DNA of 54,094 nt, from positions 1 through 54,094 of the IMG/VR virus record IMGVR_UViG_3300018059_000002, one strand, 5' to 3'. The translations under genes and the position numbers were made by a program. This stretch comes from a virus. Position 1 is the stretch's first letter; every line of letters begins with the position of its first letter. Below are positions 1 through 54,094 of the stretch, one piece after another. The notes under the pieces are model-generated. The model was not told the origin of the DNA and searched no databases. It saw only the letters and a program-made list of their open reading frames with translations.

Positions 1-120
1 CCCTAGCATTCACCATAACGGCGCGCTACACTCGCGCCCCATGCTTGCCTTTGATCGCTCAGTATTAGATCGTGATGTGATTGCGCTGGATCGTGCAAGC
101 GCGCGTACGTTTGACGCTGA
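1..120. repeat. Direct terminal repeat, left copy (identical to 53975..54094)
   Basis: Read directly: bases 1-120 (ccctagcattcacc...gtttgacgctga) recur base-for-base at 53975-54094, the last 120 bases of the window. This implies a circularly closed or terminally redundant 53,974-bp unit. Confidence 0.95.
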
Positions 121-1249
121 TGGCCGTATGCATGTCGCGCAATGTCGTATCTCGAAGGCTAATGTATGCCCCTATTACGGCCGCGAAATACCTAACGCGC
201 AGGCGCTCGGCCTTGATGCCAACAAGATTTACATGCTCTACCGCCATCCGGCGGAACTTGAGAAAGCCGCGCCGACGTTTCGCAACTTGCAATTGATGAT
301 GGTTCACAAAGGGGTCAACGCAAAAGACCCCAAAATTGAATCAACTGTTGGCACTGTGGGCAACGTTGCCTTCGATGGTACATATCTCGTAGCCGATCAA
401 TTGACGGTGTGGACGCAAGACGGGATCAAGCTGATCGAAACCGAACAAGCGGCCGAGTTGTCGGCGAGTTATCGGTACAAAGCCGCCATGACACCAGGGG
501 TCACGCCCGAGGGTGTTGCATTTGATGGCGTAATGCGCGACATTATGGGAAACCACGTCGCATTGGTTAGAGAGGGCCGCGCCGGTCCTGACGTTTATGT
601 TAACGACGAACACCCTTTGGAGCTTCCCAAAATGTTTAAGCGCCCCCGATTGCTTGCGCAGATGATCGCCTCCGGTTTGATCGCTGTGCCGACCGACGAT
701 GCCGCGCGTGTGGCGCTCGATTCAAAACTTGCCGAGATGACCGCCAAAGACGGCGAAGCGGCTGAAATGGAAGACGACCCCGAGAATCCAGGGGCAAAGC
801 GCAAAAAGATCAATCCGGGCAGAGGTGAGCCCACCAAGGTCGGGGGTGCGCTGGCCAGTGACGAGCAAATTGACGCGGCGATCGTCGCCAAAGGTTACGT
901 AACTCTCGCTGATGCGAGGACTCTTGCAGAAGACGCCGCGATGCGTGCCAAAACCGACGCAATCGCGGGCGTTAATGCGTTGCACGCGGCGCGCGAAGCT
1001 GTCAAGCCTCTCGTTGGCCTTGTGGCGATGGATTCGGCCGAAGCCGTTTATCGTTTTGCCTTGGAACACGAAAAAGTCGCAGTCGATGGTGTGCACCCGA
1101 CTGCTTTTCCGGCCTTGGTGGCGCAGGTGGTCGCACGTAAGTCCGCAATCGCTGCGGCTCCTGCTGCGCCTGCGCTGGCGGCGGACGCGGCTACCGCCGT
1201 AGCTGCCGCTTTGCCTGCACTGGGACGCGTCGCGCGTCAAACCGTCTAA
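41..1249 (+). CDS. Prohead scaffold/protease-like protein (DUF2213-like)
   Basis: 402-aa ORF. The N-terminal half (CPYYGREIP, LQLMMVHKG, GNHVALVREGRAG) resembles DUF2213-type phage head assembly proteins. The C-terminus is Ala-rich. It lies two genes upstream of the capsid gene. Confidence 0.6.
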   Translation: MLAFDRSVLDRDVIALDRASARTFDADGRMHVAQCRISKANVCPYYGREIPNAQALGLDANKIYMLYRHPAELEKAAPTFRNLQLMMVHKGVNAKDPKIESTVGTVGNVAFDGTYLVADQLTVWTQDGIKLIETEQAAELSASYRYKAAMTPGVTPEGVAFDGVMRDIMGNHVALVREGRAGPDVYVNDEHPLELPKMFKRPRLLAQMIASGLIAVPTDDAARVALDSKLAEMTAKDGEAAEMEDDPENPGAKRKKINPGRGEPTKVGGALASDEQIDAAIVAKGYVTLADARTLAEDAAMRAKTDAIAGVNALHAAREAVKPLVGLVAMDSAEAVYRFALEHEKVAVDGVHPTAFPALVAQVVARKSAIAAAPAAPALAADAATAVAAALPALGRVARQTV

Positions 1250-8553: not shown

Positions 8554-8726
8554 TTAATTACGCGAATGTGCCGCCGGTGATCGGCACGCTTGTTTCTGCT
8601 CGCATGGCCACGCTCAACGAATTGCAAACGGTGTACGGCGTTGAAGATGCGTATAGCATGCTTGAAATTCTGAAAGTCGACATGCATAACGAGCGATTGA
8701 CCCGTGGCAAACACAACAGTAATTGA
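8068..8726 (+). CDS. Tail assembly chaperone, -1 frameshift-extended isoform (G-T-like)
   Basis: The -1 frame is open from 8454 to the TGA at 8724-8726; I read every codon and found no stop. Slipping at G_GGT_TTT would append about 78 aa (...ATLNELQTVYGVEDAYSMLEILKVDMHNE...). Confidence 0.45.
8484..8490 (+). other. Candidate -1 programmed ribosomal frameshift heptamer GGGTTTT
   Basis: The 0-frame codons are GGT (8485-8487) and TTT (8488-8490), preceded by G. This fits the X_XXY_YYZ rule. Confidence 0.45.
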
Positions 8727-10212
8727 TACCCTCATAGTTAAACTTGGGCTTGATCCTAAGGAATTTACCGACGGACAAAAGAAAGCGGCGGCCGAAGGCG
8801 TCAAGTTTAAAAACGAGACGAAAAAAAACACTGACGAGATGGGCCGAAATTGGACTGGCTTTATCGGTAAGGTTGCTGGCATTGCAGGTGCCGCCGTTCT
8901 CGTAAAAAAGTTCCTCAGCTACACGTCGGACCTTTCTGCCGGTATCCGTCAGTTAGGTATTGATTCTGATAATTTCAAAATAGCGGCGGCCGAGCTTAAG
9001 AATTTCGGCAACGTTGCGGAGATGAATGGCGGTAAAGCCGAAGACGCGACCAAAACAGTCAGCGGGCTGGCGAAAGCCGTTTATGATCTTGCGTATAACG
9101 GGTCTATGTCTGATTCGCTAATCATGCTTGGCCGCCTCGGTGTACAGTTTCAAGACACCACAGGCAACATGCGCGATTTTAAAAGCATCGTATTGGACAC
9201 GCAAGCGTCAATTCAAGGCGCAATGCGCAACGGCACATCGCGTGCGAACGCGTATCAAATGCTGTTGCAGGCTGGTTTTGATCCCGGTTTAGCTAACGCC
9301 ATGCTGCAAGGAAATGTAGGTGCGCAGCTTGCCAGCCAACAACAGCGACGGCAAGTCAGCGGTGCGGATGTGTCGCTTGCAACCAAATGGGAACAAAGCG
9401 CGGCGAATCGATCGCAGGCGCTGGACGCTGCGGCGCTCAAACAGTTGGCAATTGAAGCGGTGCCGGGAACCATTGCAAACAATGCGATTGCGGCGACCGC
9501 TGATGCTGCCGGCAATGCTACTATGGGCAGCGTAACGGACAGCTTGACGACCTCGTTTAAAGAGGCTACCAACGCGGTGTCGGATTTTGCCCACCGGTTA
9601 ATGAGCACAGCCGAGGGTGCGCGTTTAAAGAGCCTGCCACGTGGTCGTAAGGCGTATGAATCGGACATACAAGGCGCGGCTAGAAAGTACGGCCTTGACC
9701 CTGAGACGTTGGCCGGTATTTTGAAAACGGAAAGTAACTTTGACCCGACCGCTACAAGCTCAACAGGGCGTCGCGGCATTGCACAGCTAACGCCTGCGTA
9801 TTTTCCGGGCGCGGGTAACAATCCTCACGCGGACATCTACACAGCCGCAAAAGAGCTTGCGCGTTTGAAGCAAAAGCATTTGAAAGCCGGTAACGATGAC
9901 GCGGCAGCGTCCTACCTCATGCTTGAAGATTATAACGCGGGCGCGCGTGGTGCTAGCGAGATGCGTAGCGGCAAGCGTTCGTACACGGACGAAACCCTTG
10001 CATATCCGGGTAAGGTGTTGGGGTACGCCTCGCAAGCAACGCCATCACCCAATGCTCAAGCGCTTGGCGGTGGCGGTTCGCGCACCGACATCACGTTCGA
10101 GAACGTGCAAGTGAACACCACTGGGCGCAACGGGGAAGCCATCGCAAACGACTTTGTGGATGCGACGCGCCGCAAGATGCAGGCCGCGCAGGCTGAAACA
10201 GGCACGCAATAA
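8704..10212 (+). CDS. Tape measure protein with C-terminal lytic transglycosylase (SLT) domain
   Basis: 502 aa with a GTG start and a helical, Ala-rich body. LKTESNFDPTATSSTGRRGIAQLTPAYF...YNAG is an SLT-type catalytic motif (E-S...GIAQ...YNAG). Confidence 0.7.
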   Translation: MANTTVIDTLIVKLGLDPKEFTDGQKKAAAEGVKFKNETKKNTDEMGRNWTGFIGKVAGIAGAAVLVKKFLSYTSDLSAGIRQLGIDSDNFKIAAAELKNFGNVAEMNGGKAEDATKTVSGLAKAVYDLAYNGSMSDSLIMLGRLGVQFQDTTGNMRDFKSIVLDTQASIQGAMRNGTSRANAYQMLLQAGFDPGLANAMLQGNVGAQLASQQQRRQVSGADVSLATKWEQSAANRSQALDAAALKQLAIEAVPGTIANNAIAATADAAGNATMGSVTDSLTTSFKEATNAVSDFAHRLMSTAEGARLKSLPRGRKAYESDIQGAARKYGLDPETLAGILKTESNFDPTATSSTGRRGIAQLTPAYFPGAGNNPHADIYTAAKELARLKQKHLKAGNDDAAASYLMLEDYNAGARGASEMRSGKRSYTDETLAYPGKVLGYASQATPSPNAQALGGGGSRTDITFENVQVNTTGRNGEAIANDFVDATRRKMQAAQAETGTQ

Positions 10213-16110: not shown

Positions 16111-16835
16111 TGCCAAGTACACCAACACCCCCAAGTTTAGTGCAAGCGTTTGCCATTATTGGTGACCGCAACACGATCCCGATTGTGCCTTCGCCGACAC
16201 CGGGCGCAGCTTCGTTTAATCTTGGTTTCCCGCCTGCCACCATGACGGACCCGACAGCCGGCGGAATACCGCCGGACGGCGAAGATATGAACGGTATTTT
16301 GTATATGCTGTCAGCGCACATTGCTTGGCTTGCGGCCGGCGGTTGCTATCATTTCAACGCTGACGTTGTGACCGTCCAAGGGGGGTATGGTGTCGGGCAG
16401 ATCGTGCAGAGCGCGGTGACGCCTACGACGTTTTATTTAAACACTGTTGCAGGCAATGCTAACGACCCTGACAGCGTCATTACTGGGTGGTTGGCCTACA
16501 ATCCCGCAGGGGGTGCAGTCGGTTTGCAAACAACGGTGTTGCCGGCAGGCACGTCCAGCGATTTAGCCCTTAGTCTTGGTGCGGGGTTTCTCGATTTAAA
16601 CCCCACGACGGGCGCTGCGGATTTGACCGGCATCGATCATACGAATGCGACTGACGGGCAGTTCCTCATCGTATCAAACATCAACGGCTCAAACATGGTG
16701 ACGCTTAAGACGTTAGATGTAAGTTCGGGGGCCTTAAATCGTTTTCGGTTGCCTGCCGATATTACCTTGCCTCAATATAACAACGTGACCTTGCGTTATT
16801 CTTCTGCAATTGCCTTGTGGGTGCCTGCATCATGA
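16110..16835 (+). CDS. Tail fibre protein 2 (N-terminal paralog of fibre 1)
   Basis: Start trimmed to the ATG at 16110, which overlaps the upstream TAA (TAATG). The N-terminus DRNTIPIVP...ASFNLGFPPATMTDP...DMNGILYMLSAH parallels fibre 1. Confidence 0.6.
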   Translation: MPSTPTPPSLVQAFAIIGDRNTIPIVPSPTPGAASFNLGFPPATMTDPTAGGIPPDGEDMNGILYMLSAHIAWLAAGGCYHFNADVVTVQGGYGVGQIVQSAVTPTTFYLNTVAGNANDPDSVITGWLAYNPAGGAVGLQTTVLPAGTSSDLALSLGAGFLDLNPTTGAADLTGIDHTNATDGQFLIVSNINGSNMVTLKTLDVSSGALNRFRLPADITLPQYNNVTLRYSSAIALWVPAS

Positions 16836-19237
16836 AAAAGTTTTACGGTTTTATTGGTTGTTTGTTGTTTAGCGTTGCGGCATTCGGTGCAACGTTTAAT
16901 TTATTTTCACCGGCTAGTGGCGTACTCAAAGGCAATCCTGCGACATACGTAACAACATCTGCAACATCTACTGATGTTAAATCTCTATGGTCCGGCACGT
17001 GCGACAACACCACGTACTTACGCGGTGATGGTAGTTGTCAAACGCCGCCCGGTACCGGAGGGGGTACCGTTAACAGTGTGGCCCTTAGCGCGCCTTCGAT
17101 ATTCAGCGTGTCAGGTTCACCAGTTACGACAACAGGAACGCTCGGTCTAACGTTTGCAGGGGGCCAGACTGCAAACCAATTCCTTGCCACACCTGATGGT
17201 GTTGCGGGCGCAGTCGCGCTTAGGTCGATGGTGGCGGCAGATGTCCCAAGTTTAGATCTTGTTACCAAGACGACTACCACTCTCACAGGGCTATTGAAAG
17301 GCACGGGGAGCGGCGCTCCCAGCGCGTACACCGGTACCAGTTGTACAAATCAATTTCCTCGCAGCATTAATGTGAGCGGCGCAGCAACGTGCGCCAGCGT
17401 AGATGTAGCTCTTGACATCACAGGTATTACGCCGGCAACGAACGGCGGTACAGGAAGCGGGTTTACCGCATTTTCTGGCCCGGCCGCGTCGACCAAAACC
17501 TTTATCTTGCCTAATGCGTCAAGCACTATTCTCACCAGTAATGCGGCGGTCACTGTAGCGCAAGGCGGCACAGGTGTTGCTACGTTGACGGGCATTGCGA
17601 AAGGTAATGGCCCGTCGGCCTTTACGACCGCAGTCTCAGGCGATGTGACGACGTTGTGGGGCGGCACGTGCGACGGCACGACTTACTTGCGTGGTGATGG
17701 TAGTTGTCAAACGCCGCCTACGGGCGGATCGGGAGCTAACCCGAGCGCAACAATCGGGTTAACGGCAGTCAACGGTGCGGCCATCACGTTTATGCGTAGT
17801 GACGGCGCCCCGGCTTTGAGCCAGAGCATTACGCCAACGTGGACGGGCGTGCACGCGTGGACTAGATCCACCACAGGACAGACCCTAACAGGCACAAACT
17901 CAAACGCTGCTGCTAATACTTGGTCTGAGTGGGTAAGCACAAACAGCAGTGGGCACGGCCTACATTTAACACATACGTCGGCAGCGTCAAACGCATCCTT
18001 TATCCCCGGCGCACCGGCTTCAGAGGCGGGTCTGATATACACGGACGCTGCGGTGCCCATGGTGCTTGGTACTAGCAACACCAGCCGTGTGCAAATTGGT
18101 GCGGCAGGCAACGTCACTATCAATGCGCCGAGTAGCGGTGTGGCTTTAGCTATTCCATCTGTAGGTATGACAGTTAACGGCGCGACTATCGCAACGGCTG
18201 ATGGCATTGCTGGAAGGCTGCTGATTGGAGACGGGACCGCAACTAACACGGCGTTGCGAATTAACTCTGGGTCTGCAACTGTTCTCAGCATTGACGCCGT
18301 GTTAAGTAATAGTAGCGCCTCAGAAAAAATACTTGCTTTCCAGGACAATGGTGGGGCAACAACGTTCGGCGGAGTTATTACAGCCAAAGCCATTAATAAC
18401 GCGATACTGATGTCTGGTGCGACTACTAACAACCAATACTTACGTTCCACTACAACCGGTGCTGACAGCATCTTCGGCTCAGACAGCAGCTCAGGCGCGT
18501 CTATATTTAGCGGCTCCCCTGCTTATGCAACGATGCTCGGAACGACTGGGGCTACATCGGTAGTAATCGGCACTAACAGCGCGAAGCGTGTTGAGGTTAC
18601 CAGCGGTGGAGCAGTAACCATCGCAGCCGCCAGTGCAGCGAGATCGTTGCAGGTAAGCGGCGCGGCGAATCAGTACACACAATCGATAACGGCTAGCAGC
18701 ACCGCAAGTCAATCTTTTGGGTTATTAATTGATGCCGGTACGAATGCTTCCGACGTTGCGCTTAATGTGCGCAACCAAGCTGCCACGCTGCAAAACTTCA
18801 CGGTCACAGGTGTTGGCGCAATCGCCGTAAACAATGGTTCATATGGCACAGCCGGGCAAGTTCTGACTTCCGGAGGTTCGACTGCTGCCGCTACGTGGAC
18901 GAGCCCTGCCGCAACCACCATATCTGGTGGGTCTATTGCGTCTAACGGTAGCGGAAGCTGTTCTCTCACCACTAACGCTACCGTGGGGCTCGCCTCATGC
19001 TCGGTCAGCTCTACGGTTATGACTGTGACTTTCTCGAATACTGCCGCTCATTTTTGGGTGTGCTCGGCGTCAAACGAAAGTTCCAGTGCCGCGTATATCG
19101 TTAATACGGGCCGCGTTGGAACGACCACTGCAACTATACGCTCGTGGAATTTAACGTCGACAGGCCCTATCACGTGGAGCACGGTTGACCCTTCAACAAC
19201 AGCCATTACATACCAGATAACTTGTCAGCCTGTTTAA
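16832..19237 (+). CDS. Large tail fibre-like protein with hydrophobic N-terminus
   Basis: Start trimmed to the ATG at 16832 (ATGA overlap), giving 801 aa rich in Gly/Thr/Ala/Ser. GTAGQVLTSGGSTAAATW is a common fibre motif. The N-terminus MKKFYGFIGCLLFSVAAFGA looks like a signal peptide. Confidence 0.6.
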   Translation: MKKFYGFIGCLLFSVAAFGATFNLFSPASGVLKGNPATYVTTSATSTDVKSLWSGTCDNTTYLRGDGSCQTPPGTGGGTVNSVALSAPSIFSVSGSPVTTTGTLGLTFAGGQTANQFLATPDGVAGAVALRSMVAADVPSLDLVTKTTTTLTGLLKGTGSGAPSAYTGTSCTNQFPRSINVSGAATCASVDVALDITGITPATNGGTGSGFTAFSGPAASTKTFILPNASSTILTSNAAVTVAQGGTGVATLTGIAKGNGPSAFTTAVSGDVTTLWGGTCDGTTYLRGDGSCQTPPTGGSGANPSATIGLTAVNGAAITFMRSDGAPALSQSITPTWTGVHAWTRSTTGQTLTGTNSNAAANTWSEWVSTNSSGHGLHLTHTSAASNASFIPGAPASEAGLIYTDAAVPMVLGTSNTSRVQIGAAGNVTINAPSSGVALAIPSVGMTVNGATIATADGIAGRLLIGDGTATNTALRINSGSATVLSIDAVLSNSSASEKILAFQDNGGATTFGGVITAKAINNAILMSGATTNNQYLRSTTTGADSIFGSDSSSGASIFSGSPAYATMLGTTGATSVVIGTNSAKRVEVTSGGAVTIAAASAARSLQVSGAANQYTQSITASSTASQSFGLLIDAGTNASDVALNVRNQAATLQNFTVTGVGAIAVNNGSYGTAGQVLTSGGSTAAATWTSPAATTISGGSIASNGSGSCSLTTNATVGLASCSVSSTVMTVTFSNTAAHFWVCSASNESSSAAYIVNTGRVGTTTATIRSWNLTSTGPITWSTVDPSTTAITYQITCQPV
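17024..17049 (+). repeat. 26-nt direct repeat, copy 1 (ggtgatggtagttgtcaaacgccgcc)
   Basis: Identical 26-mer at 17693-17718, in frame. It encodes GDGSCQTPP within the repeated LW-x-GTCD-x-TTYLRGDGSCQTPP module. Confidence 0.9.
17693..17718 (+). repeat. 26-nt direct repeat, copy 2
   Basis: Identical to 17024-17049, 669 nt downstream, in the same reading frame. Confidence 0.9.
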
Positions 19238-20830: not shown

Positions 20831-22189
20831 ATGACTGATTCACAGCGGGTCTCAATTTTCAGCAACAATGGCGCGCTTACCGCACGTGCACCGGGATTCG
20901 ACCCTATCCCCCTCCCTGTTAATCCTGCCGAGATGGGGGCGTTGGCGATCAATGCTAATAGTAACGGGCGGACTACGTTGGGTATCTGCGGCGACTCCAT
21001 TTCGCAGAATTGTTTTAACGATACGGCGGTCAACAGTATATTTTTCTCGCGCGGTTGGGCAGCTATGGCCCCCGCGATGGCAGGCGTCTATTGCGTGCCT
21101 GTCAAATACGCTACTTCCGGTGCGACGATTCAATCGTGGGCTGCCGAACATCTCGCCAATGTGATCGCTGCGAAGCCTTCTGCTGTGACGCTGATGCTTG
21201 GGGCGAACAATGCAATAAATCCCGGCGGATATCCTTTTGCCGCGTCCATGACTGCGTTAGATGAGATATGCGCGGCCTTAACAACGGCCGGTATCTACGT
21301 TGCCCATCTGCCTACACCGCCGCAAGGATCAATCGCGGCTCCGGTATCCGCGGCGGTTTCTAACTACATCGTTCGGTTAAACAAGCACGTAAGAGATTAT
21401 TGGGTAGGGAAAGCGTTTGGCGAATATGTTGACACGTACTCCACTTTAGTCAGCAGTACTACGGTTAGTGCAGGCACGGTGACCACCAATCCGTGGAAAG
21501 CAAACTACGCCCAGGCGGACGGCCTCAACATTCATCCCTCGCAGTTAGGCGCGTACTACATCTCATACGCGATTTTTCAAAGCGGCGTTTTGCAACGCCT
21601 TTTCCCCGCGTATCAGTTGATTCAATCCAACAGCGATTATATCGGTACTGATTCGACCTCAAATCAGTTACTACCTAACGGATTAATGCTTGGTACTACA
21701 GGCGCACACGATAACGGATTTTCAAGCGGCCCGGTCGCTACCGGCTGGCGACTGTCAGGAGCGGCGAACGTGTCTGTAGTGGCTTCAAAAGCCACTGCTG
21801 ATAGCGGTGTTGGAGAAAAACAAATACTGACGTGCACTGCAACAGGTGCGGGTCAAGTTGCGTTTTACATGACTGGAATCGAAAGTAATTTTACATCCGG
21901 TAACACCATCCGTGCCGCAGCTAGAATAAAGGTTACGGGGGCGACTGCACAAACACGTTGCGTGTGGGAGCTTTTTGCGAGTGGGCCGGGCGACATCCTT
22001 GGGTGGAACGATGGCCCACAAGACGTATCGTTCCCAACCACTCAACAAGAATATCTAGCGGCGATAACGCCTGGAAGAATTCTCACTTATTCATCTGGTT
22101 ACATTCGGCCGTTGTTGTATATCAACTTCAGCGGTGCCGGCGGCGCGGTGATCGAAATATCGCAAGCTGAGATTCGTAAAAATTATTAG
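20831..22189 (+). CDS. SGNH/GDSL-family hydrolase with C-terminal beta-rich domain
   Basis: 452 aa. Block I is LGICGDSISQN, block III is LMLGANNAI, and the block V-like segment is ADGLNIHPSQLG. It is the last gene of the rightward arm. Confidence 0.65.
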   Translation: MTDSQRVSIFSNNGALTARAPGFDPIPLPVNPAEMGALAINANSNGRTTLGICGDSISQNCFNDTAVNSIFFSRGWAAMAPAMAGVYCVPVKYATSGATIQSWAAEHLANVIAAKPSAVTLMLGANNAINPGGYPFAASMTALDEICAALTTAGIYVAHLPTPPQGSIAAPVSAAVSNYIVRLNKHVRDYWVGKAFGEYVDTYSTLVSSTTVSAGTVTTNPWKANYAQADGLNIHPSQLGAYYISYAIFQSGVLQRLFPAYQLIQSNSDYIGTDSTSNQLLPNGLMLGTTGAHDNGFSSGPVATGWRLSGAANVSVVASKATADSGVGEKQILTCTATGAGQVAFYMTGIESNFTSGNTIRAAARIKVTGATAQTRCVWELFASGPGDILGWNDGPQDVSFPTTQQEYLAAITPGRILTYSSGYIRPLLYINFSGAGGAVIEISQAEIRKNY

Positions 22190-31101: not shown

Positions 31102-31635
31102 TTAAAATTTCCAAAGTTGGGGCTTGGAACCTTTTGGTAAATATAAGGGGTGCTTCGGGACACCGCCTTTTGTTAATCCAAGCGTGTGTAATTTTTCAGG
31201 CGCAACTGTGCTTAAGTGATGTTGCACGCGGTCGGCAAGCTCTTTATGAGCGATGGTGCCCCACGTGCAAATAATTAATGAGGCTTCAAGTGCATGACGA
31301 ATTAAAAACCCCTCGTTGTGGTCAATGATCAATTGTCCCGGTATACGCGTTTGTTTTGGGTCTGTACTCCGATAGGGGTTCACATTTACAAAAACCATTT
31401 TCGTATAACCCCACGCAGATGTGAACCCCCATCCGCGTCGCTCTGTTGCATCATCTATTTTAGCGTCAGTAAGCGACGGGTTGGCACACACCCACAGGAC
31501 AAAATCAGCATTAAGATGCGCAACAGGTTTGTCAAACAACGTTGCGCAACGGACACACGGGCAATCTAATCCTGCCTGACGGGTCAAATCATAACGATAT
31601 GACCCGCACGGGCTTATTGTTGCATCCCGTATCAT
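31102..31635 (-). CDS. DUF1643-like protein
   Basis: 177 aa. SPCGSYRYDLTR...NPSLTDA...DDATERR...ICTWGT...GGVPKHPLYL matches the DUF1643 pattern as I recall it. Confidence 0.65.
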   Translation of the reverse strand: MIRDATISPCGSYRYDLTRQAGLDCPCVRCATLFDKPVAHLNADFVLWVCANPSLTDAKIDDATERRGWGFTSAWGYTKMVFVNVNPYRSTDPKQTRIPGQLIIDHNEGFLIRHALEASLIICTWGTIAHKELADRVQHHLSTVAPEKLHTLGLTKGGVPKHPLYLPKGSKPQLWKF

Positions 31636-42536: not shown

Positions 42537-43040
42537 TTATAATTTGTCGATTGTTGCACCTCCTTTTTCGTTAATAAAAATTCCGACATTTTCCATATCT
42601 CGTTGGCTTTTCTTTACTCTCTTACGCGCCGCAATCGCCAAGTTAGCTACCCGTTTTAAATGGCCGGAGAGTATTAATGCTTGATCGGGGTCAAGCGCTA
42701 TGTGGCGTACAGGAGCCTGCCAATCAATCAGCACTTGCATTGCTCTACTCACACCGACTTGATATTTGAGTTCGGGCGTTGCTGACAGTTCCGATGGCTT
42801 TGCAGATGTCGTATCATTGACTATTGCTTTTAATCCGCCATCTACGCCGGGTACACCTTCGTGATACAATTTGTCGCGAGCGCGTTGGGCTTGCTCCGGG
42901 GTGATTTCAGATAACCTCAATCCTTGTGCTTTAAGTAATGCGACACGATGCATTGGCTTCTTAGGGCACATTGGACACCACGAATCGGAGAATTCACCGC
43001 AATCGGTGTGTTTGATAGGACACGCATAGATAATCATCAT
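42537..43040 (-). CDS. Cys-rich protein translationally coupled to the sigma factor (anti-sigma candidate)
   Basis: 167 aa. Its ATG overlaps the sigma gene stop (ATGA). The N-terminus is CPIKHTDCGEFSDSWCPMCP. Function inferred only from the gene pairing. Confidence 0.3.
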   Translation of the reverse strand: MMIIYACPIKHTDCGEFSDSWCPMCPKKPMHRVALLKAQGLRLSEITPEQAQRARDKLYHEGVPGVDGGLKAIVNDTTSAKPSELSATPELKYQVGVSRAMQVLIDWQAPVRHIALDPDQALILSGHLKRVANLAIAARKRVKKSQRDMENVGIFINEKGGATIDKL

Positions 43041-43534
43041 TTGGCCTTTTTAAGAGTCTTGTGTACTTCACGTAATCCGAGCGCGATATGATGTTCTACC
43101 GTCTTTTCGCTTAAATGGTACTTCTTAGCGAGCTGTCGATAGGAAGCGCCAAAAAAGACACGTTGCGAAAACACCGCTTTACATCGTGGAGGTAGTAAAT
43201 TAATTGCTTTACGCAGCGCTTCGGTTTGTTCTAAACGGATCAACAATTCATCGGCCGGCTCGTTGGCCGCTAACATTTCCGCAAAGTCATCGCAACGATC
43301 AAACTGTACTAACCTATCGTGTCGACAGGAATCCAAAGCCATGCGTTTCGCAACTGTGAATAGGAAAGCCCGAGGTATTTCTAACTTATCCATATTCACT
43401 AGCGTTTTTATAAATGCCTCTTGTGCAATGTCGCTGGCAGTTTCATCAGAATGCACGAAACGCTTGATGTAACGACACAAGTCATTGTAGCTACTGACGA
43501 ACAAGTTAGTTACTGAGTCTTTGATAGCCATCAC
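43037..43534 (-). CDS. ECF-type (FecI-like) sigma-70 family factor
   Basis: 165 aa. Region 2 reads DIAQEAFIKTL...PRAFLFTVAKRMALDSCRHDR and region 4 reads LPPRCKAVFSQRVFFGASYRQLAKKYHLSEKTVEHHIALGLREV. Confidence 0.75.
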   Translation of the reverse strand: MMAIKDSVTNLFVSSYNDLCRYIKRFVHSDETASDIAQEAFIKTLVNMDKLEIPRAFLFTVAKRMALDSCRHDRLVQFDRCDDFAEMLAANEPADELLIRLEQTEALRKAINLLPPRCKAVFSQRVFFGASYRQLAKKYHLSEKTVEHHIALGLREVHKTLKKAK

Positions 43535-49399: not shown

Positions 49400-51121
49400 A
49401 TGTCTACGCCTCTTAATTGGTTACGCGGAAAATTGCGCGCATGGCTGGGCGTCCCCGTGGGAGCGCAGGACACGTCAAAGAAAGATGAACCGCAGCACAT
49501 CAAGATTCACCCATCATTGATGGCGCAAACGTTGGTGAAAGCAGGCGAACAATACATCACCTATCGCAAGGTAGCCCCGCCGGTTCTGCCGGATAACGTG
49601 CGTGGCGCGTTTGTCTACGATGCGACAAAAGACCCTGGACGACTCGGGCCGCCGGTGCTGGCTATGGATGACGCACAAACCGCGCCGGCATGGGCTTACC
49701 TAAATCAAGCCAATTGCGGCATGGGTTTCCCTGGTTACGGGTATCTAAGCGAACTGTCGCAACGTAGTGAGTACCGCGCGCCAGTTGAAACGATTGCAAG
49801 CGAGATGACGCGCGAATTTATTGATGTCACTGTCAAGGGCAAGGCTAGCAAAAAGAAACGCGAGAAACGTGGCGAACAGGTTGCGGAAGATGAAGCGCTA
49901 GACGAGGGCTTAGAGGACAAGCTAGAACAAATGGAAACAGCAATAGACGAGTTCAAAATACGTGATCACTTTCGTCAGATTGCTGAGCACGATGGTTTTT
50001 TCGGTCGCGGTCAGTTGTTTATTGATGTTGATACCGGCAGCGCGAATCCTGACGACATCCGCCAACTACCGCTAATCGTGAGCCCTGAAACGATTAAGCG
50101 AGGTTCACTCAAGGGCTTTAAGGTGGTGGAGCCAATATGGACTACGCCGTACGCATACAACTCTACTGATCCCACGCGCGGGGATTTTTACAAGCCGTCG
50201 GCGTGGTTTATGATCGGCAAGCGCGTGCATGCTTCGCGCTTGCTCACGTTCGTGTCACGTGAGGTGCCGGACATTCTCAAACCGGCCTACAATTTCAGCG
50301 GTTTGTCGATGTCTCAGTTGATGGAGCCTTACGTGTTCCAATGGTTGCGCACCCGTAACAGTGTGTCGGACCTTGTGCACAACTTCTCTGTCATGGTCCT
50401 AAAAACGGACATGAACGCAGTATTGCAAGGTGGTGCCGGCGGTGCCGAGGCTGGCACAGGTTTACTAGATCGCGGCAAGTTATTTGTAAACACACGCGAT
50501 AATCAAGGTTTGACGATGATCGACAAGAATCGGGAAGAACTTGTCGAAGTGCATGCGAGTCTTGCAGGACTCGACAAGCTACAAGCGCAATCACAGGAAC
50601 ATATGGCGGCCCCCTCGCATATGCCTTTGGTGAAGCTGACGGGTATTACGCCCGCCGGTTTGAATGCGGATAGCGAAGGTGAGATTCAAGTGTGGTACGA
50701 CTGGATTCGCGCCGATCAGATTTTTTTCTACGGGCCGCATCTTAAGCACGTGTTAGATATTTTACAGTTGCATTTATTTGGCGAGATTGAACCGGCAATA
50801 TCATTTACGTTTGTGCCGTTGAAAACGCCAACTGTCAAAGAACTGGCCGAGATTCGCAAGAGCAACGCGGAGACTGATGGTATATACATCGACAAGGGCG
50901 TTGTTAGCCCTGATGAAGTGCGGGAACGTGTGGCGGCCGATCCTGATAGCGGATACAACAATTTGTCGGGCGATGCTCCCGGACCTCCTGAGGCCGAGCT
51001 GATGCAACAGGAACACGCCCTTGGTCAAGAGGGAGCCGAGGCGGATCACGCACGCGGTAAGGAGATGGCGACGGTGCAGGCTAAATTAAAGCCCGCGCTG
51101 GCTAAAACTGGTAAGGGTTGA
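49400..51121 (+). CDS. Portal protein (DUF1073-like)
   Basis: 573-aa ORF directly after terL. The central region (HDGFFGRGQLFIDVDTG...) resembles DUF1073 portals, and the C-terminus is acidic. Confidence 0.7.
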   Translation: MSTPLNWLRGKLRAWLGVPVGAQDTSKKDEPQHIKIHPSLMAQTLVKAGEQYITYRKVAPPVLPDNVRGAFVYDATKDPGRLGPPVLAMDDAQTAPAWAYLNQANCGMGFPGYGYLSELSQRSEYRAPVETIASEMTREFIDVTVKGKASKKKREKRGEQVAEDEALDEGLEDKLEQMETAIDEFKIRDHFRQIAEHDGFFGRGQLFIDVDTGSANPDDIRQLPLIVSPETIKRGSLKGFKVVEPIWTTPYAYNSTDPTRGDFYKPSAWFMIGKRVHASRLLTFVSREVPDILKPAYNFSGLSMSQLMEPYVFQWLRTRNSVSDLVHNFSVMVLKTDMNAVLQGGAGGAEAGTGLLDRGKLFVNTRDNQGLTMIDKNREELVEVHASLAGLDKLQAQSQEHMAAPSHMPLVKLTGITPAGLNADSEGEIQVWYDWIRADQIFFYGPHLKHVLDILQLHLFGEIEPAISFTFVPLKTPTVKELAEIRKSNAETDGIYIDKGVVSPDEVRERVAADPDSGYNNLSGDAPGPPEAELMQQEHALGQEGAEADHARGKEMATVQAKLKPALAKTGKG

Positions 51122-51153: not shown

Positions 51154-51375
51154 ATGAGAAGTGTTGTACATGTACCACCCGGTTTCCAAGACCAGCACAA
51201 ACCCCATATAACAAAGGTTGACGGCCTTTGGTGGGCTATCTGGCCGAATCATACTACGATGCCTAGCGATGACGATTTAGAACGCATATATCGCCCTTAC
51301 ACGAACAAGTTGAACGGCATCACCATGCCGCAACCCAAGTCACTGCTGTATGACCCGCACCCGGTGATTCAATGA
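51154..51375 (+). CDS. Hypothetical protein
   Basis: 73-aa ORF whose end overlaps the GIY-YIG ATG (ATGA). Confidence 0.5.
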   Translation: MRSVVHVPPGFQDQHKPHITKVDGLWWAIWPNHTTMPSDDDLERIYRPYTNKLNGITMPQPKSLLYDPHPVIQ

Positions 51376-51941
51376 AAGCAGGCGTTTACATCATCACTTG
51401 CTTAGTTAATCGAAACGTTTATGTAGGATCAAGTAAGAACTACAAAACGCGACTTTCTAACCATTTTAGTAGGCTGCGTGCGGGTGTCCACGCTAACCCG
51501 AAGCTGCAAGCATCGTTTGATAAATATGGGGCGGAGCGTTTTAACAGTTGTGTGCTGCTGATTTGTAAACCTGAAAATTTGTTATGGTTTGAGCAGCGCG
51601 CTATAAATGTGCTGCGGCCCTCTTTTAATATCGCTAAACACGCGGACGCCCCAAATCGAGGGCGGGTGTTTTCTGCGGAAGTAAGGGCTAAGGTGTCTGC
51701 ACGTTTAAAAGGCAATACCTATACGCTCGGATATAAAGCAAGCGCCGAAACTAAAGCTAAGCTGTCAGCTTTGCGTCGCGGTAAAAAACTGCCGGCACGA
51801 GGTGCACTTAGCATCGAACACCGTGCGATAATTTCCCAAACTCATAAAGGCCGGAAACATTCGACGATTCACCGTGCGCGAGTTAGTGAGGCTAAACGCA
51901 AATGGTGGGCAGATAAAAAGGCGGCGGCATGCGCAAGTTAA
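51372..51941 (+). CDS. GIY-YIG homing endonuclease with NUMOD-like repeats
   Basis: GVYIITCLVNRNVYVGSS...R...H is the GIY-x10-YVG motif. The C-terminal repeats are S-x-E-x-R/K-A-K-x-S...G (FSAEVRAKVSARLKG and ASAETKAKLSALRRG). Confidence 0.85.
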   Translation: MKAGVYIITCLVNRNVYVGSSKNYKTRLSNHFSRLRAGVHANPKLQASFDKYGAERFNSCVLLICKPENLLWFEQRAINVLRPSFNIAKHADAPNRGRVFSAEVRAKVSARLKGNTYTLGYKASAETKAKLSALRRGKKLPARGALSIEHRAIISQTHKGRKHSTIHRARVSEAKRKWWADKKAAACAS

Positions 51942-53329
51942 GGGCTTCAACTAGAAAACCTATTGTTTGCGAGCCTGTATGGCCGAATCAGGGGGTTAAA
52001 AACTGGTACGACACAAAGCTCGTTGAAATGATCAACGAAGCCGAGCGCGGCTTGCGTAGCGCCCTCGCCTATCTGTGGCGCGATATCCCGCCGCTATTCA
52101 CGCACGACGAAGCGCTCGACGTTGAAGCCGACGCGGCCGGCGTCATGTACGTTTGCGGCAATCGTATCTTGCTAATGCGCCGCACTGACGGGTTAGGCTG
52201 GGCATTTCCCGGCGGCAGCGTTGAAGAGAACGAGACCGCAGAAGCCGGCGCACGTCGTGAGGCATTCGAGGAAACATTGCACCCCTGTAATGGTTTGCTT
52301 GAGTTCGTCAGTATGTGGCGGCGCGACAAGTTCCACTTCGCTACATTCACAACAGAAGTTCCCGAAGAATTCACGCCAACGCTGAATAGCGAGCACGATG
52401 CTTTTGTGTGGGTAACTCCCTACGACGCAATGGACATGGAGTTGCACGCCGGATTACCCTTTACACTTGGCGAGTATGCGCGACGCCTTGCGCATGATGC
52501 CCCCAGCTCTACAAAGGCGCTGCAAGCGTTGCTCGCGAAGTGGAGCAAGCAAGTAATTAAACGGTTTGACCTTGCGTCGTTTGACCTTGCGAGTAACTTC
52601 GCATCTCGTAGCGTGATCGCTACACAAACAGCCATGATGTCGCAGCTAAAAAACGCAGGCTTTACCGTGGCGTTTAAACCTACGATGAAAAGCATGGAAG
52701 CATACAAGGCCGTGACCGCTGAAAACGTTGCGTTGATCAAATCGATTCCGCGCAAGTGGCATGAGCAGGTAGAACAGAAAGTTTGGAGCGCTGTACGCAA
52801 CGGCTCCGACTTGAGCAAGCTATCGGTTGAGCTTCGCAAGGCGTACGGTTCTACAACTAAGCGCGCGGCGTTGATCGCTCGTGATCAAAACGCTAAGGCG
52901 AAAGCTACGATTGAACGGGTGCGCCAACAAGAATTAGGCATCACGCGCGGTATTTGGATGCACTCACATGCCGGCAAAGAACCGCGGCCTACCCACGTGG
53001 TGATGAATGGCGAGCAGTACAACTTGAATCAAGGCATGTACGATAGTGACGAGCAAGCTTATGTGCACCCCGGTGAGTTGATTTATTGTCGATGTTCCAT
53101 GCGTCCTGTGATCGAAGGCGCGCAAGAATACGCGGATACCGACGACGAGCCGACAAACGTTATGCTGGGCGCTGCTCTGCGCAATGCGGAGCAAAACGTA
53201 GGAAAGCCGCGCGCTGCTGAGATGCGCGTCATACTGCAAGAGTTGTATGATGTGCGCAAACGTTGGTCTGGCGCTGACGAAATGCAGCTACGCACCGAGG
53301 TCATGGGTTTTTTGAACAGTGGGGTTTAA
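51929..53329 (+). CDS. MuF/SPP1 gp7-like head morphogenesis protein with an embedded Nudix hydrolase domain
   Basis: The Nudix box GGSVEENETAEAGARREAFEETL lies at nt 52211-52279. The MuF-like core is IARDQNAKAKA...THVVMNGEQYNL...GELIYCRCSMRPVI (aa 315-395). Confidence 0.7.
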   Translation: MRKLRASTRKPIVCEPVWPNQGVKNWYDTKLVEMINEAERGLRSALAYLWRDIPPLFTHDEALDVEADAAGVMYVCGNRILLMRRTDGLGWAFPGGSVEENETAEAGARREAFEETLHPCNGLLEFVSMWRRDKFHFATFTTEVPEEFTPTLNSEHDAFVWVTPYDAMDMELHAGLPFTLGEYARRLAHDAPSSTKALQALLAKWSKQVIKRFDLASFDLASNFASRSVIATQTAMMSQLKNAGFTVAFKPTMKSMEAYKAVTAENVALIKSIPRKWHEQVEQKVWSAVRNGSDLSKLSVELRKAYGSTTKRAALIARDQNAKAKATIERVRQQELGITRGIWMHSHAGKEPRPTHVVMNGEQYNLNQGMYDSDEQAYVHPGELIYCRCSMRPVIEGAQEYADTDDEPTNVMLGAALRNAEQNVGKPRAAEMRVILQELYDVRKRWSGADEMQLRTEVMGFLNSGV

Positions 53330-53331
53330 TC

Positions 53332-53541
53332 ATGTCGCGATTGACGCCGGAGCAAGCCGCCGAGCAATTGCTAGATACTGCCCAAACATTAGACGAGGTC
53401 GTCGGTGAAGGCATTGACACATTGCCGCGTGAATGGTGTCACGATTTAGACACGCGCGTTATGTGCTGTGAGTCTTGCGGCTGGTGGGTTGAATCGGATG
53501 AAATCGACGACGACGGCAACTGCGAGGATTGTGCAACATGA
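53332..53541 (+). CDS. Small acidic Zn-ribbon protein
   Basis: 69 aa, with CCESCG...CEDC. Confidence 0.5.
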   Translation: MSRLTPEQAAEQLLDTAQTLDEVVGEGIDTLPREWCHDLDTRVMCCESCGWWVESDEIDDDGNCEDCAT

Positions 53542-53786: not shown

Positions 53787-53980
53787 ACCTGCACGACCGC
53801 GCCGAGTTCGAGAAGCAACTCACGCGATACCTAAGCGCACACAACACGCTGCGCGAGCATAACGCGCGGGTCGACCTTGTTAACTGGGTGGCCAAATACG
53901 CCGATGAACAAGTTGCGGCGACTGTGCGCCTTGCGTGGGGCGTGCCTACATCAATCGAAGACAGTTTAGGCGGCCCCTAG
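53783..53980 (+). CDS. Hypothetical protein
   Basis: Start trimmed to ATG 53783 (ATGA overlap; MNLHDRAEFEKQL...). The stop TAG lies inside the terminal repeat. Confidence 0.45.
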   Translation: MNLHDRAEFEKQLTRYLSAHNTLREHNARVDLVNWVAKYADEQVAATVRLAWGVPTSIEDSLGGP

Positions 53981-54094
53981 CATTCACCATAACGGCGCGC
54001 TACACTCGCGCCCCATGCTTGCCTTTGATCGCTCAGTATTAGATCGTGATGTGATTGCGCTGGATCGTGCAAGCGCGCGTACGTTTGACGCTGA
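53975..54094. repeat. Direct terminal repeat, right copy (identical to 1..120)
   Basis: Same 120 nt as 1-120. It contains the stop of ORF 53783..53980 and the ATG (54015, equivalent to 41) of the scaffold-like gene. Confidence 0.95.

Follow-up and report, generated by a model that had tools for sequence, protein, structure and literature searches.

A Nudix hydrolase module inserted into the MuF-type minor head protein of an uncultured phage, a candidate for packaged cargo

Introduction

What is a nucleotide-hydrolysing domain doing inside a minor head protein of a phage? The question is raised by an open reading frame within a stretch of 54,094 nucleotides of viral DNA (IMG/VR record IMGVR_UViG_3300018059_000002, hereafter the window), whose source is an uncultured, contractile-tailed phage. 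The original prediction, made from the letters of the window, described a MuF/SPP1-gp7-like protein with an embedded Nudix domain, which could be delivered with the virion and act at the onset of infection.

That MuF-family proteins reside in the capsid interior and sometimes carry effector domains, as assumed there, agrees with the literature. In SPP1, the portal protein gp6 brings gp7 into the capsid interior in few copies; gp7 is dispensable for assembly and helps the initiation of infection (PMC6316719). Both gp20 and gp21 of phage Pa193 were detected in mature virions by LC-MS (PMC11456595). The MuF polymorphic toxins consist of an N-terminal MuF domain and a C-terminal toxin, usually with a small immunity gene downstream, and occur in temperate phages (Jamet et al. 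2017, PMC5576092). T4 Alt, other packaged ADP-ribosyltransferases (ARTs) and polyvalent proteins are head-packaged enzymes that are injected with the DNA and act before phage transcription (Iyer et al. 2017, PMC5512222). In main-text passages of Iyer, Burroughs, Anantharaman and Aravind (2022, Viruses 14:1977, PMC9503650), Nudix domains fused to MuF, portal and capsid protease are described, their injection is predicted computationally, and they are placed in a 'T4 NudE-like' clade with an ADPr-directed role argued from context.

Results

Domain composition and predicted fold

The gene starts with ATG and encodes 466 amino acids followed by a stop codon. Both predicted domains scored above the Pfam gathering scores, with NUDIX (PF00293) reaching 64.6 bits over residues 68-169 (E=1.2e-17; gathering score 21.1) and Phage_Mu_F (PF04233) reaching 43.0 bits over residues 280-391 (E=8.7e-11; gathering score 29.6); both E-values are far beyond chance. 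By these profile thresholds, the protein is assigned to the Nudix superfamily as well as to the MuF/SPP1 gp7 family. Among the PHROGs, phrog_324 ('head morphogenesis') matched residues 195-441 (E=1e-58), while phrog_1198 ('MutT/NUDIX hydrolase') was the best PHROG of the Nudix domain and matched residues 72-176 (E=5.4e-16). TIGR01641 (phageSPP1_gp7) reached 36.0 bits, slightly under its cut-off of 39.65 bits. The two MuF motifs quoted originally were located at residues 356-361 and 387-390.

An AlphaFold2 model of the 466-aa protein was obtained with a mean pLDDT of 85.2. It contains a compact alpha/beta module at about residues 65-187 with a pLDDT of mostly 87-94, flanked by low-pLDDT linkers at 54-63 and 188-193, which matches the Nudix span of approx. 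65-185 given in the original prediction. Foldseek aligned the module with many Nudix crystal structures at a probability of 1.00 and a target-normalised TM of 0.66-0.79, and an alpha/beta/alpha Nudix fold is predicted for it. HMM searches and structure prediction, which had been recommended as a check, thus confirmed both domains and their boundaries (Pfam, PHROGs, AlphaFold2).

The N-terminal MuF segment reads MRKLRA...PVWPNQGV..WY...PPLF. In the model, the MuF core consists of three long helices (194-335) joined by a small beta core at 340-395 that contains H356 and C387-x-C389, and its best matches in BFVD were minor capsid components without Nudix. The C-terminal tail (residues 398-466) had no domain match in Pfam or NCBIfam. 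It is confined to the closest subclade, where Nudix-bearing and Nudix-less members have it alike. The coordinates are compiled in Table 1.

Table 1. Features of the Nudix-bearing head protein gene and of two further head genes, numbered along the window.
Feature	Position	Strand	Basis
Complete Nudix-in-MuF minor head protein gene	51929..53329	+	ORF list; Pfam NUDIX and Phage_Mu_F
N-terminal MuF segment, residues 1-57, with long helix 21-52	51929..52099	+	Alignment of relatives; helix from AlphaFold2
Inserted Nudix module with two flexible linkers, residues 58-189	52100..52495	+	Alignment of relatives, Pfam, AlphaFold2, Foldseek
Nudix box in canonical register, residues 96-118	52214..52282	+	Alignment of 113 Nudix-bearing relatives
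Clade-specific motif F148-x-P150-x-L152-N153-x-E155-H156-x4-W161, downstream of the box	52370..52411	+	Clade alignments
MuF/SPP1-gp7-like core, residues 190-397	52496..53119	+	Pfam, phrog_324, AlphaFold2
C-terminal three-helix tail, residues 398-466, and stop codon	53120..53329	+	AlphaFold2 helices 410-464
Portal protein	49400..51121	+	Pfam Phage_portal_3, E=5.3e-77
Head maturation protease/scaffold (DUF2213 / Pa193_gp24 family)	41..1249	+	phrog_2229, E=1.4e-106

Insertion and loss of the Nudix module

The Nudix insert is carried by 113 of the 120 nearest relatives and is missing from the other seven. Relatives without it have the N-terminal 57 residues in common with the window protein, and the alignment then picks up at D190. 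The length of the junction is all-or-nothing, namely 125-212 aa (median 135) in the 113 relatives and 2-14 aa in the seven. Residues ~58-189 are a clean internal insertion, and the domain is truly embedded, as the original prediction had it. The N-terminal segment is common to the Nudix-less P0051, P0056, P0082, P0092 and P0101, with N20, G22, V23, Y27 and L31 invariant, and its motif also aligns to the MuF homologue of Pa193, which matches the window protein with E=3e-20. No direct repeats bracket the insert; the only repeats seen were short chance ones and a 13-nt tandem within a MuF helix.

All Nudix-less lineages nest among Nudix-bearing ones. P0091 and P0092 are each other's closest match, and the Nudix-less P0101 is 94% identical to the Nudix-bearing P0025 in the MuF core and retains a remnant of the pre-Nudix linker. 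Judged from these relationships, the module appears to have been lost independently several times. The mean pairwise identity was 0.47 for the Nudix module and 0.64 for the MuF core, corresponding to a roughly 1.5-fold faster divergence of the module. Given an invariant box in 113 relatives, repeated independent loss and this faster divergence, the module looks like an optional yet selected enzyme.

Nudix box and second conserved motif

The box string quoted in the original prediction, GGSVEENETAEAGARREAFEETL, corresponds to residues 95-117 (nt 52211-52279). In canonical register, the box reads G96-x5-E102-x7-R110-E111-A112-x-E114-E115-x-L117-H118, with A112 filling the U position. The description as 'almost canonical' proved apt: no catalytic or metal-binding residue is missing, and the sole deviations are at the last two positions (L117 and H118 for the canonical G-U, U being hydrophobic). 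G, E7, R15, E16, E19 and E20 of the box are each found in 113/113 Nudix-bearing relatives and stay invariant down to ~41% identity. The window protein has L at position 22, like 47 of the 113, whereas 37 have G there.

A second motif, F148-W161, lies downstream of the box. In an alignment of 31 diverse clade members of different architectures, E155, H156 and W161 never vary, and at least 90% of the sequences have F148, P150, L152 and N153; the motif is almost invariant in the 109-sequence clade set (see below) as well. The motif aligns to the 'EHQALVW' segment of NudG and is a probable substrate- or metal-binding loop. Judging by these residues, the module is apparently catalytically competent, i.e. 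an active pyrophosphatase.

Gene neighbourhood and genome context

The gene order in the window is TerS-TerL-portal-73-aa ORF-(homing endonuclease)-MuF, likewise in relatives and in Pa193, and the order of the head module is identical with and without the Nudix insert. The protein shares a homologous MuF core and the position right downstream of the portal gene with SPP1 gp7 and phage Mu gpF. By analogy, the portal would be the docking partner that recruits the MuF protein into the procapsid, and the DUF2213 protease is a possible processing enzyme. In contrast to the window protein, SPP1 gp7, whose portal binding and low copy number are known, has no enzymatic domain. By gene order, the MuF homologue of Pa193 must be gp20 or gp21 of PMC11456595 and was thus probably among the virion proteins detected there.

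Small ORFs follow the MuF gene in the window (69, 85 and 80 aa), in the Nudix-bearing relatives L004/L003 (72, 83 and 67 aa) and L006 (81 and 86 aa) and also in the Nudix-less relative L001 (76, 85 and 81 aa), as compared by presence and size. Since the gene order is the same and small downstream ORFs are present with and without Nudix, a cognate immunity gene appears to be absent. The MuF polymorphic toxins likewise have a MuF domain carrying a variable enzymatic domain, for which virion delivery was proposed (PMC5576092). Membership in that class was nevertheless rejected on the internal position of the cargo upstream of the PF04233 core, the apparent lack of a cargo-specific immunity gene and the putatively virulent lifestyle; Nudix is not mentioned by Jamet et al. 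(PMC5576092). The replication module is of the virulent type, with DNA polymerase, helicases, primase, exonuclease and SSB all encoded by the phage, and an integrase did not turn up in the 20 mid-to-large window ORFs scanned. The structural ORFs scanned were all virion proteins. The sole PADLOC match, to the candidate PDC-S07 (E=3.4e-8), is a weak one of generic Nudix type and says little.

When GenBank phages were searched with the head region by megablast, no close cultured relative came up. In tblastn against the same phages, the full protein matched 986 records with the MuF half only, whereas residues 1-195 matched nothing at E<=1e-3, and no cultured phage with a Nudix-MuF fusion was found among them.

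Carriers of the Nudix clade

An exhaustive HMMER search with the Nudix module was used to survey its clade, which is described here by the 109 nearest cluster representatives. The DUF2213 head protease/scaffold was the carrier in 29 of these, MuF in six and portal in one, so DUF2213 is the commonest alternative carrier in other phages. P0182 starts with Nudix and continues with sequence 55% identical to the DUF2213 protein of the window, and the portal P0136, 45% identical to that of the window, bears the clade Nudix at its C-terminus. A further six representatives are fused to ARTs, one of them a 1605-aa polyvalent protein; examples are P0194 (Nudix and ADPrib_exo_Tox), P0155 (ART, NT5C and Nudix) and P0168 (ART-PolyVal, Nudix and DUF7178). 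The nearest stand-alone Nudix homologue sits between portal and major capsid genes.

The occurrence of one Nudix clade on different head-interior carriers, on ARTs or alone within head modules points to packaging into the capsid. The fusions to Alt/VIP2-type and ART-PolyVal domains link the clade to T4 Alt and the polyvalent proteins. These differ in activity, as a transferase is opposed to a pyrophosphohydrolase, and the window protein has one cargo domain instead of a multi-effector chain.

The window protein is placed in the class of head-protein-fused Nudix domains described in PMC9503650, with the same architecture, the same inference and the same three carriers, recovered here independently. 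The class has been in print since 2022, and what the window protein adds to this known concept is a well-characterised example with details that can be tested. The main-text passages of PMC9503650 considered here do not mention that the module is an internal insertion, that it was lost repeatedly or that it evolves faster.

Relation to characterised Nudix enzymes and candidate substrates

The best PDB profile match of the module was the CTP pyrophosphohydrolase NudG (Orf135) from E. coli with E=2.9e-14 and an alignment that spans 105 of the 123 profile positions and takes in the EH...W motif, and MutT proteins came next. Dcp2, Ndx1 (Ap6A hydrolase), DIPPs, Ap4A hydrolases and RppH were matched as well. 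The top PDB matches in Foldseek were the Ap4A hydrolases from Aquifex and C. elegans, Dcp2 Nudix domains, the diadenosine polyphosphatase Rv2985 and BdRppH. NudG, MutT, the Dcp2 Nudix domain and the Ap4A hydrolases resemble the module in being small and monomeric with ~130-150 aa; they share only 17-26% identity with it and are cellular house-cleaning or RNA-decay enzymes with no fusion to a virion protein. Scores were near-flat across the Nudix subfamilies, with E-values of ~3e-7 to 4e-6 in Foldseek and 3e-14 to 3e-10 in profiles, and the substrate can therefore not be picked from structure or profile. Profile and fold matches nevertheless appear to favour enzymes of the MutT/NudG, Dcp2/RppH and Ap4A types over ADP-ribose pyrophosphatases, and NAD/ADP-ribose, listed first among the targets in the original prediction, was not favoured by sequence or fold. 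The candidate substrates are, in order of preference, RNA 5' ends or caps (5'-triphosphate, NAD or Np4N) together with dinucleoside polyphosphates, followed by (d)NTPs (canonical, modified or defence-made) and by NAD/ADP-ribose-derived molecules.

As an enzyme like RppH, Dcp2 or the Ap4A hydrolases, the module would, once delivered, leave monophosphate ends on host RNAs that had carried a 5'-triphosphate or a cap and so cause their decay and early host shut-off, or it would remove alarmones of the Ap4A type. The Foldseek ranking and the agreeing profiles fit such a role, and Nudix decapping enzymes serve host shut-off in eukaryotic DNA viruses, as summarised in a passage of PMC9503650. On the other hand, these classes scored no better than MutT/NudG, the module showed neither an RNA-binding extension nor an element of the Dcp2 'Box B' type, and few enzyme copies seem inefficient against a whole transcriptome. 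This activity is possible, yet doubtful.

Degradation of NAD/ADP-ribose-derived molecules (ADPR, the cyclic ADPR signals of Thoeris or NAD caps) by the packaged enzyme would blunt NAD-based immunity at infection, and it is a similarly speculative explanation. Such a role was argued from context in the passages of PMC9503650 and would fit the clade fusions described above, as ARTs consume NAD, although this co-fusion may merely reflect that both are packaged effectors. Neither an ART nor a macrodomain or NAD-salvage gene was found among 20 mid-to-large window ORFs scanned. A proline 15-16 residues past the Nudix box is a marker of ADP-ribose pyrophosphatases, whereas the window protein has D and K at positions +15 and +16. 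The 60 top-ranking profile matches to solved structures included no enzyme named ADP-ribose pyrophosphatase, and the ADPR-binding NrtR came 43rd by fold in Foldseek. Assignment to the ADP-ribose pyrophosphatase subfamily was rejected on these profile and fold rankings, with the proline marker as a lead.

T4 NudE hydrolyses ADPR, FAD, Ap3A and NADH and decaps NAD-RNA in vitro, which also speaks for NAD-related substrates. NudE and NudE.1 (phrog_1185) are likewise phage Nudix proteins, encoded beside internal-head-protein and late genes, and the box half of NudE can be aligned to the module (hhalign probability 97.6%). However, the alignment comprises just 55 N-terminal columns, the C-terminal, specificity-determining half fails to align, and BLASTP gave 29% identity over 65 aa. 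NudE scored 4.7e-74 on phrog_1185 as opposed to 3e-7 for the module over residues 13-59 (the box half), and the two fall into different PHROGs. NudE is moreover a stand-alone protein of 151 aa that is not known to be packaged. Membership in the NudE clade was not supported and the substrates of NudE cannot be transferred to the window Nudix; in this the analysis differs from the passages of PMC9503650, since the kinship found here is at superfamily level only and the nearest characterised enzymes are of the MutT/NudG, Dcp2 and Ap4A types.

The module might also be a (d)NTP pyrophosphohydrolase of the MutT/NudG type that clears damaged, non-canonical or defence-made chain-terminating or toxic nucleotides and so protects the first phage transcription or replication. 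NudG and MutT led the profile matches, 66 of the 109 clade members matched PF14815 (NUDIX_4, a MutT/MutY-type model) and the weak NCBIfam matches were to NTP pyrophosphatases. The latter were, however, all far under the equivalog cut-offs, the E-value gaps to other subfamilies are small and there is no obvious need to pre-package a house-cleaning enzyme, which makes this function unlikely.

Discussion

The architecture is best explained by packaged cargo, a reading that is considered probable as a whole. The MuF part would be the vehicle, a MuF/SPP1-gp7-type minor head protein associated with the portal, and the Nudix cargo would have been acquired within the flexible linker between the N-terminal helix and the helical core. 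It would be carried in the capsid, exit together with the genome when the next host is infected and there hydrolyse a nucleoside-diphosphate-X substrate ahead of any phage gene expression. As only few copies could be delivered, a catalytic enzyme would make more sense than a stoichiometric binder. The module would be dispensable for head building and kept by selection, and a host-dependent role in takeover or counter-defence would fit. The domains, the insertion topology, the conservation of the catalytic residues, the repeated loss and the recurrent fusions to head-interior proteins are observations, whereas packaging, ejection, timing and substrate are inferred. For most phages, it has been proposed and not demonstrated that MuF-type proteins are ejected into the cell, and no experiments on virion presence, ejection or activity of a Nudix-MuF fusion or a virion-associated phage Nudix were found in the literature searched. 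The originally proposed enzyme that is delivered by the virion and acts at the onset of infection gains weight from the comparative data, because the same Nudix clade occurs on three head-interior carriers and with ARTs of the packaged type. It is tentatively suggested that the delivered Nudix destroys an immune messenger, a toxic or chain-terminating nucleotide made by a defence system or an RNA cap within seconds of genome entry.

The Nudix could instead work in the producing cell, where, tethered at the prohead, it would remove a nucleotide or signal that hinders assembly or packaging or triggers head-sensing defences; the head protease may even clip it off, so that it is never delivered. 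Prohead protease is degraded before DNA packaging in many phages, and a fusion to it could function during assembly in the producing cell. The protease/scaffold is the commonest carrier of the clade and is encoded by the window phage, the two flanking linkers, modelled as disordered, could be cleavage sites, and bacterial immunity that senses capsid or portal proteins exists (e.g. PMC12578639). Against this, a soluble enzyme would suffice and tethering would be needless, delivery is favoured by the fusions to classical injected effectors (Alt-like ARTs and polyvalent proteins), and gp24 (DUF2213) of Pa193 persists inside mature capsids (PMC11456595). A function restricted to assembly is thus judged quite improbable. 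An assembly or frameshift error joining two genes, or an inactive Nudix remnant with a structural role, is effectively refuted, even though the last two box positions are non-canonical and loss of the module leaves the gene intact, because one continuous frame and the same architecture recur in 113 independent protein clusters from different assemblies, the six catalytic box residues are fully conserved while the module falls to the low mean identity given above, a second invariant motif is present and the fold is predicted with confidence.

Most known phage counter-defence proteins are made only after infection, which gives fast host immunity a head start. If the packaged-cargo explanation is true, a pre-made, capsid-borne enzyme would act ahead of any phage gene expression. 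Should it also destroy one of the host molecules suggested above, it would be the first demonstrated enzyme-type counter-defence that uses the MuF/portal/scaffold packaging route, and the defences of local hosts would be mirrored in the recurrent gains and losses of the module. The MuF internal linker suggests itself as an engineering site that could serve to package foreign enzymes into phage heads. Close kin that have or lack the module, catalytic residues that never vary and a module hopping among three capsid-interior carriers form a natural experiment and therefore a tractable entry to the target of a virion-delivered Nudix.

Domain structure of the Nudix-MuF protein

The original prediction of one ORF that joins a Nudix domain to a MuF-like minor head protein was confirmed in every detail. 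Both domains scored above the Pfam gathering thresholds and the PHROGs assignments agreed with them. The Nudix box, described as almost canonical, was found at exactly the predicted position; in canonical register it reads G96-x5-E102-x7-R110-E111-A-x-E114-E115-x-L117-H118. Every catalytic position is present and only the last two positions depart from the consensus. The check proposed for the domains and their boundaries, profile searches together with structure prediction, showed both domains in Pfam, PHROGs and an AlphaFold2 model (mean pLDDT 85.2, pTM 0.56).

Features of the phage genome (nt) and of the Nudix-MuF protein (residues, aa)
Feature	Position	Strand	Evidence or description
Terminal direct overlap	nt 1-120 and 53975-54094		exact, 120 nt
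Tape-measure-like protein (N-terminal half)	nt 8704-10212	+	C-terminal transglycosylase/endolysin-like region ~316-494 (phrog_342, phrog_669, phrog_13449)
806-aa ORF downstream of tail-fibre gene	nt 16817-19237	+	no PHROG or Pfam match
452-aa ORF just after tail-fibre region	nt 20831-22189	+	phrog_6102 'lipase' (moron/auxiliary category), E=9e-25
DUF1643 protein	nt 31102-31635	-	E=5.2e-23
ECF-type sigma factor	nt 43037-43534	-	Sigma70_r2 1.4e-9, Sigma70_r4_2 8.9e-11
GIY-YIG/NUMOD3 homing endonuclease, 189 aa	nt 51372-51941	+	Pfam 2.8e-10 and 1.1e-8; phrog_314 1.3e-23
Nudix-MuF gene, 466 aa	nt 51929-53329	+	ATG start
Nudix box	nt 52211-52279 (aa 95-117)		GGSVEENETAEAGARREAFEETL
Perfect 13-nt tandem repeat	nt 52564-52591	+	GTTTGACCTTGCG, twice, 15 nt apart
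69-aa ORF directly 3' of Nudix-MuF	nt 53332-53541	+	two CxxC pairs (CCESCGW...CEDCAT)
NUDIX	aa 68-169		Pfam, E=1.2e-17, 64.6 bits (gathering score 21.1)
'MutT/NUDIX hydrolase'	aa 72-176		phrog_1198, E=5.4e-16
Phage_Mu_F	aa 280-391		Pfam, E=8.7e-11, 43.0 bits (gathering score 29.6)
'head morphogenesis'	aa 195-441		phrog_324, E=1e-58
Long helix	aa 21-52		AlphaFold2 model
Disordered linker	aa 54-63		AlphaFold2 model
Compact alpha/beta module	aa ~65-187		AlphaFold2 model
Second linker	aa 188-193		AlphaFold2 model
Three long helices	aa 194-335		AlphaFold2 model
Small beta core	aa 340-395		AlphaFold2 model
Three-helix tail	aa 410-464		AlphaFold2 model

The Nudix domain had been called embedded, and this was borne out when Nudix-MuF was aligned with relatives, 20 that carry Nudix and 5 that lack it. 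The latter (cluster representatives P0051, P0056, P0082, P0092 and P0101) have the N-terminal ~57 residues (MKKLRA...PVWPNAGV..WY...TPPLF) in common with Nudix-MuF and then run straight into the 'DAPSSTKALQ' segment at D190-A191. Junction length among the best 120 relatives was all-or-nothing, with 125-212 aa (median 135) in 113 and 2-14 aa in 7. Thus, the module is inserted internally rather than fused at the N- or C-terminus. The best matches in a viral structure library were Nudix-less 'minor capsid components' of ~280 aa aligned over ~400 query columns, as would be expected of an insertion.

The tandem repeat in the gene translates to FDLAS-FDLAS in the first of the long MuF helices. A near-identical form occurs in the four closest relatives, with no change in length compared to the others, so the repeat is probably incidental.

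Genome and head module

The terminal overlap marks the sequence as a complete genome of ~53,974 bp, circular or circularly permuted. It encodes a myovirus gene set (tail sheath, baseplate hub and baseplate wedge) and a replication module of the virulent type with DNA polymerase, two helicases, primase, exonuclease and a gp2.5-like SSB. A search of the window for tRNA genes was negative, and neither an integrase nor an NAD/ADPr-related gene was among the 20 mid-to-large ORFs scanned. The nearest cultured relatives, Aeromonas phage vB_AsaM-56 and Klebsiella phages, have only ~50% identity in the major capsid protein, and Pseudomonas phages are the most numerous among the matches (299/575 records). 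The Nudix half (residues 1-195) had no match in GenBank phages by tblastn at E<=1e-3.

The head module, which wraps across the window ends, runs TerS, TerL, portal, 73-aa ORF, homing endonuclease, Nudix-MuF, three small ORFs, DUF2213/Pa193_gp24-type head protease/scaffold, minor capsid protein and major capsid protein. It is syntenic in the Nudix-bearing contigs L003, L004 and L006 and in the Nudix-less L001. Small downstream ORFs occur in both kinds, which makes it unlikely that they are immunity genes specific to the cargo. The first of them, without a match in Pfam or PADLOC, has cysteine pairs consistent with a putative zinc ribbon; it is an unlikely cargo-specific partner because L001 carries a small ORF (76 aa) in the same place.

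The homing endonuclease gene is absent from an 82%-identical relative (L006 5990-6015) and its insertion site is precisely the former start codon of MuF. L006 reads TCAATGAAAAAGCTACGC, an upstream stop overlapping the MuF ATG, and the window reads TCAATGAAAGCAGGCGT, in which the same ATGAAA is now the endonuclease start. MuF begins at a new ATG, with MRKLRA for the MKKLRA of the relative, and the endonuclease stop overlaps this ATG by 13 nt. Thus, the close gene spacing was preserved on either side.

Several other genes were annotated. The ECF-type sigma factor in the leftward early/middle region suggests that the phage may redirect host RNA polymerase, and the DUF1643 gene adjoins the exonuclease in the replication/recombination cluster. 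The C-terminal region of the tape-measure-like protein looks like a tail-delivered cell-wall-degrading domain. The 806-aa ORF probably encodes a new type of receptor-binding or distal fibre protein, and the product of the 452-aa ORF could be an esterase or depolymerase associated with the tail, or else a moron.

Conservation and loss of the Nudix module

More than 100 clusters combining PF00293 and PF04233 were found in a large protein collection, down to ~41% identity, many of them on contigs of 51-55 kb. The box residues G, E7, R15, E16, E19 and E20 are kept in 113/113 Nudix-bearing relatives. A second motif, F148-x-P-x-L-N153-x-E155-H156-x4-W161, is invariant or nearly so, also in clade members of other architecture. 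Mean pairwise identity was 0.47 for the Nudix module compared to 0.64 for the MuF core. Thus, the module diverges ~1.5 times faster with its catalytic residues fixed.

The Nudix-less lineages are all nested among Nudix-bearing ones (P0091 and P0092 are each other's closest match). Their MuF cores can be close to identical to those of Nudix-bearing relatives, with 94% between P0101 and P0025 and 83% between P0051 and P0006, and P0101 retains the pre-Nudix linker remnant 'SAHITTGYG'. These observations indicate that the module was probably deleted independently several times. Judged from these comparisons, it appears dispensable for head assembly, yet maintained as a predicted active enzyme where present, which is what marks an accessory function that is useful under certain conditions. 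The alignments show an intact Nudix module within a linker of a head protein of the MuF/gp7 type, with the predicted catalytic residues under purifying selection, and a module apparently gained and lost as a unit.

Other carriers of the Nudix clade

The module was the query of an exhaustive HMMER search of 1.84 billion cluster representatives, which yielded 2565 matches at E<=1e-3 (305 at E<=1e-10). Pfam architectures were read for the best 109 of these. The DUF2213 head protease/scaffold was the partner in 29, followed by Phage_Mu_F and ADP-ribosyltransferases with 6 each (the latter ADPrib_exo_Tox 5, ART-PolyVal 1), DUF7178 with 2 and the portal with 1. P0136 consists of a portal (30-471, 45% identical to that of the window) and Nudix (491-602), and P0182 of Nudix and a protease with 55% identity to that of the window. 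P0194 is Nudix with ADPrib_exo_Tox, P0155 combines ART, NT5C and Nudix, and P0168 (1605 aa) is a typical polyvalent protein with ART-PolyVal, Nudix and DUF7178. Of the homologues that stand alone, P0123 (128 aa, ~40% identity) is the nearest; its gene lies on a 62-kb contig, between those for the portal and the major capsid protein.

Thus, one enzyme module recurs on three different carriers of the capsid interior, and also together with effectors of the classical injected type. No other comparison argues as strongly for packaged cargo.

Outside the window, some head-protein fusions (P0125, P0209, P0263 and P0267) carry the Nudix module twice in tandem, each copy with an intact E-x7-RE-x2-EE box. 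The tandem pair of P0125 and of P0209 precedes the DUF2213 protease.

Possible substrates

Against solved structures, the clade profile ranked the CTP pyrophosphohydrolase NudG/Orf135 first (2.9e-14), followed by MutT proteins, Dcp2, Ndx1, RenU, DIPPs, Ap4A hydrolases and RppH. The top Foldseek ranks were Ap4A hydrolases, Dcp2, Rv2985, YmfB, NudG and BdRppH. Profile and fold scores are nearly flat across these subfamilies and do not single out a substrate. Within the delivery model, three classes of substrate are about equally probable: RNA-cap/Ap(n)A molecules, (d)NTP-type molecules and NAD/ADPr-type molecules. The ART fusions of the clade lend contextual support to the last, but may reflect nothing more than shared packaging.

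An ADPRase-type identity was not supported, as no ADP-ribose pyrophosphatase by name was among the best 60 solved-structure profile matches and NrtR reached only Foldseek rank 43. A NudE-type identity was not supported either: T4 NudE belongs to phrog_1185 (E=4.7e-74), which the module matches at E=3e-7 in the box half only, its best PHROG being phrog_1198, and similarity to NudE itself is limited to 29% identity over 65 aa (BLASTP) and 55 N-terminal columns (hhalign).

Proposed function

The finding is real, and the cautious interpretation in the original prediction, a virion-delivered Nudix enzyme that could act at the moment of infection, is the best-supported one; overall, we consider this model somewhat probable. 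The MuF part would be recruited by the portal into the procapsid, and the Nudix module would ride in the capsid in few copies, leave it with the DNA and hydrolyse an NDP-X substrate ahead of phage gene expression. Low copy number favours catalytic over stoichiometric action. Two disordered linkers flank the module and the phage encodes a head protease, so release of the module by cleavage is a possibility.

SPP1 gp7 is dispensable for assembly, with only ~25% of gp7-less virions infectious (PMC6316719). Mature capsids of Pseudomonas phage Pa193 keep gp24 (DUF2213 family) in their interior, and LC-MS of virions identified the products of gp20, gp21, gp24, gp27 and gp31 (PMC11456595). The window MuF has a homologue in the 278-aa 'head morphogenesis' protein of Pa193 (E=3e-20), with the N-terminal motif aligned too; by gene order, this Pa193 protein must be gp20 or gp21.

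The MuF toxins of Jamet et al. 2017 combine an N-terminal MuF with a C-terminal toxin in temperate phages, and that study makes no mention of Nudix (PMC5576092). Our literature search turned up no experimental study of a phage Nudix associated with the virion. In 2022, Iyer et al. predicted packaging and injection of Nudix domains fused to MuF, portal or capsid protease, against ADPr-derived signals (PMC9503650), so the class is already described there, by computation only. Nudix-MuF, from an uncultured myovirus lineage, belongs to this predicted kind. To that prediction, our analysis adds that the module is an internal insertion, that carriers otherwise almost identical differ in having or lacking it, and that it evolves faster around an active site that does not vary. 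It also adds the evidence against a NudE-type or ADPRase-type Nudix.
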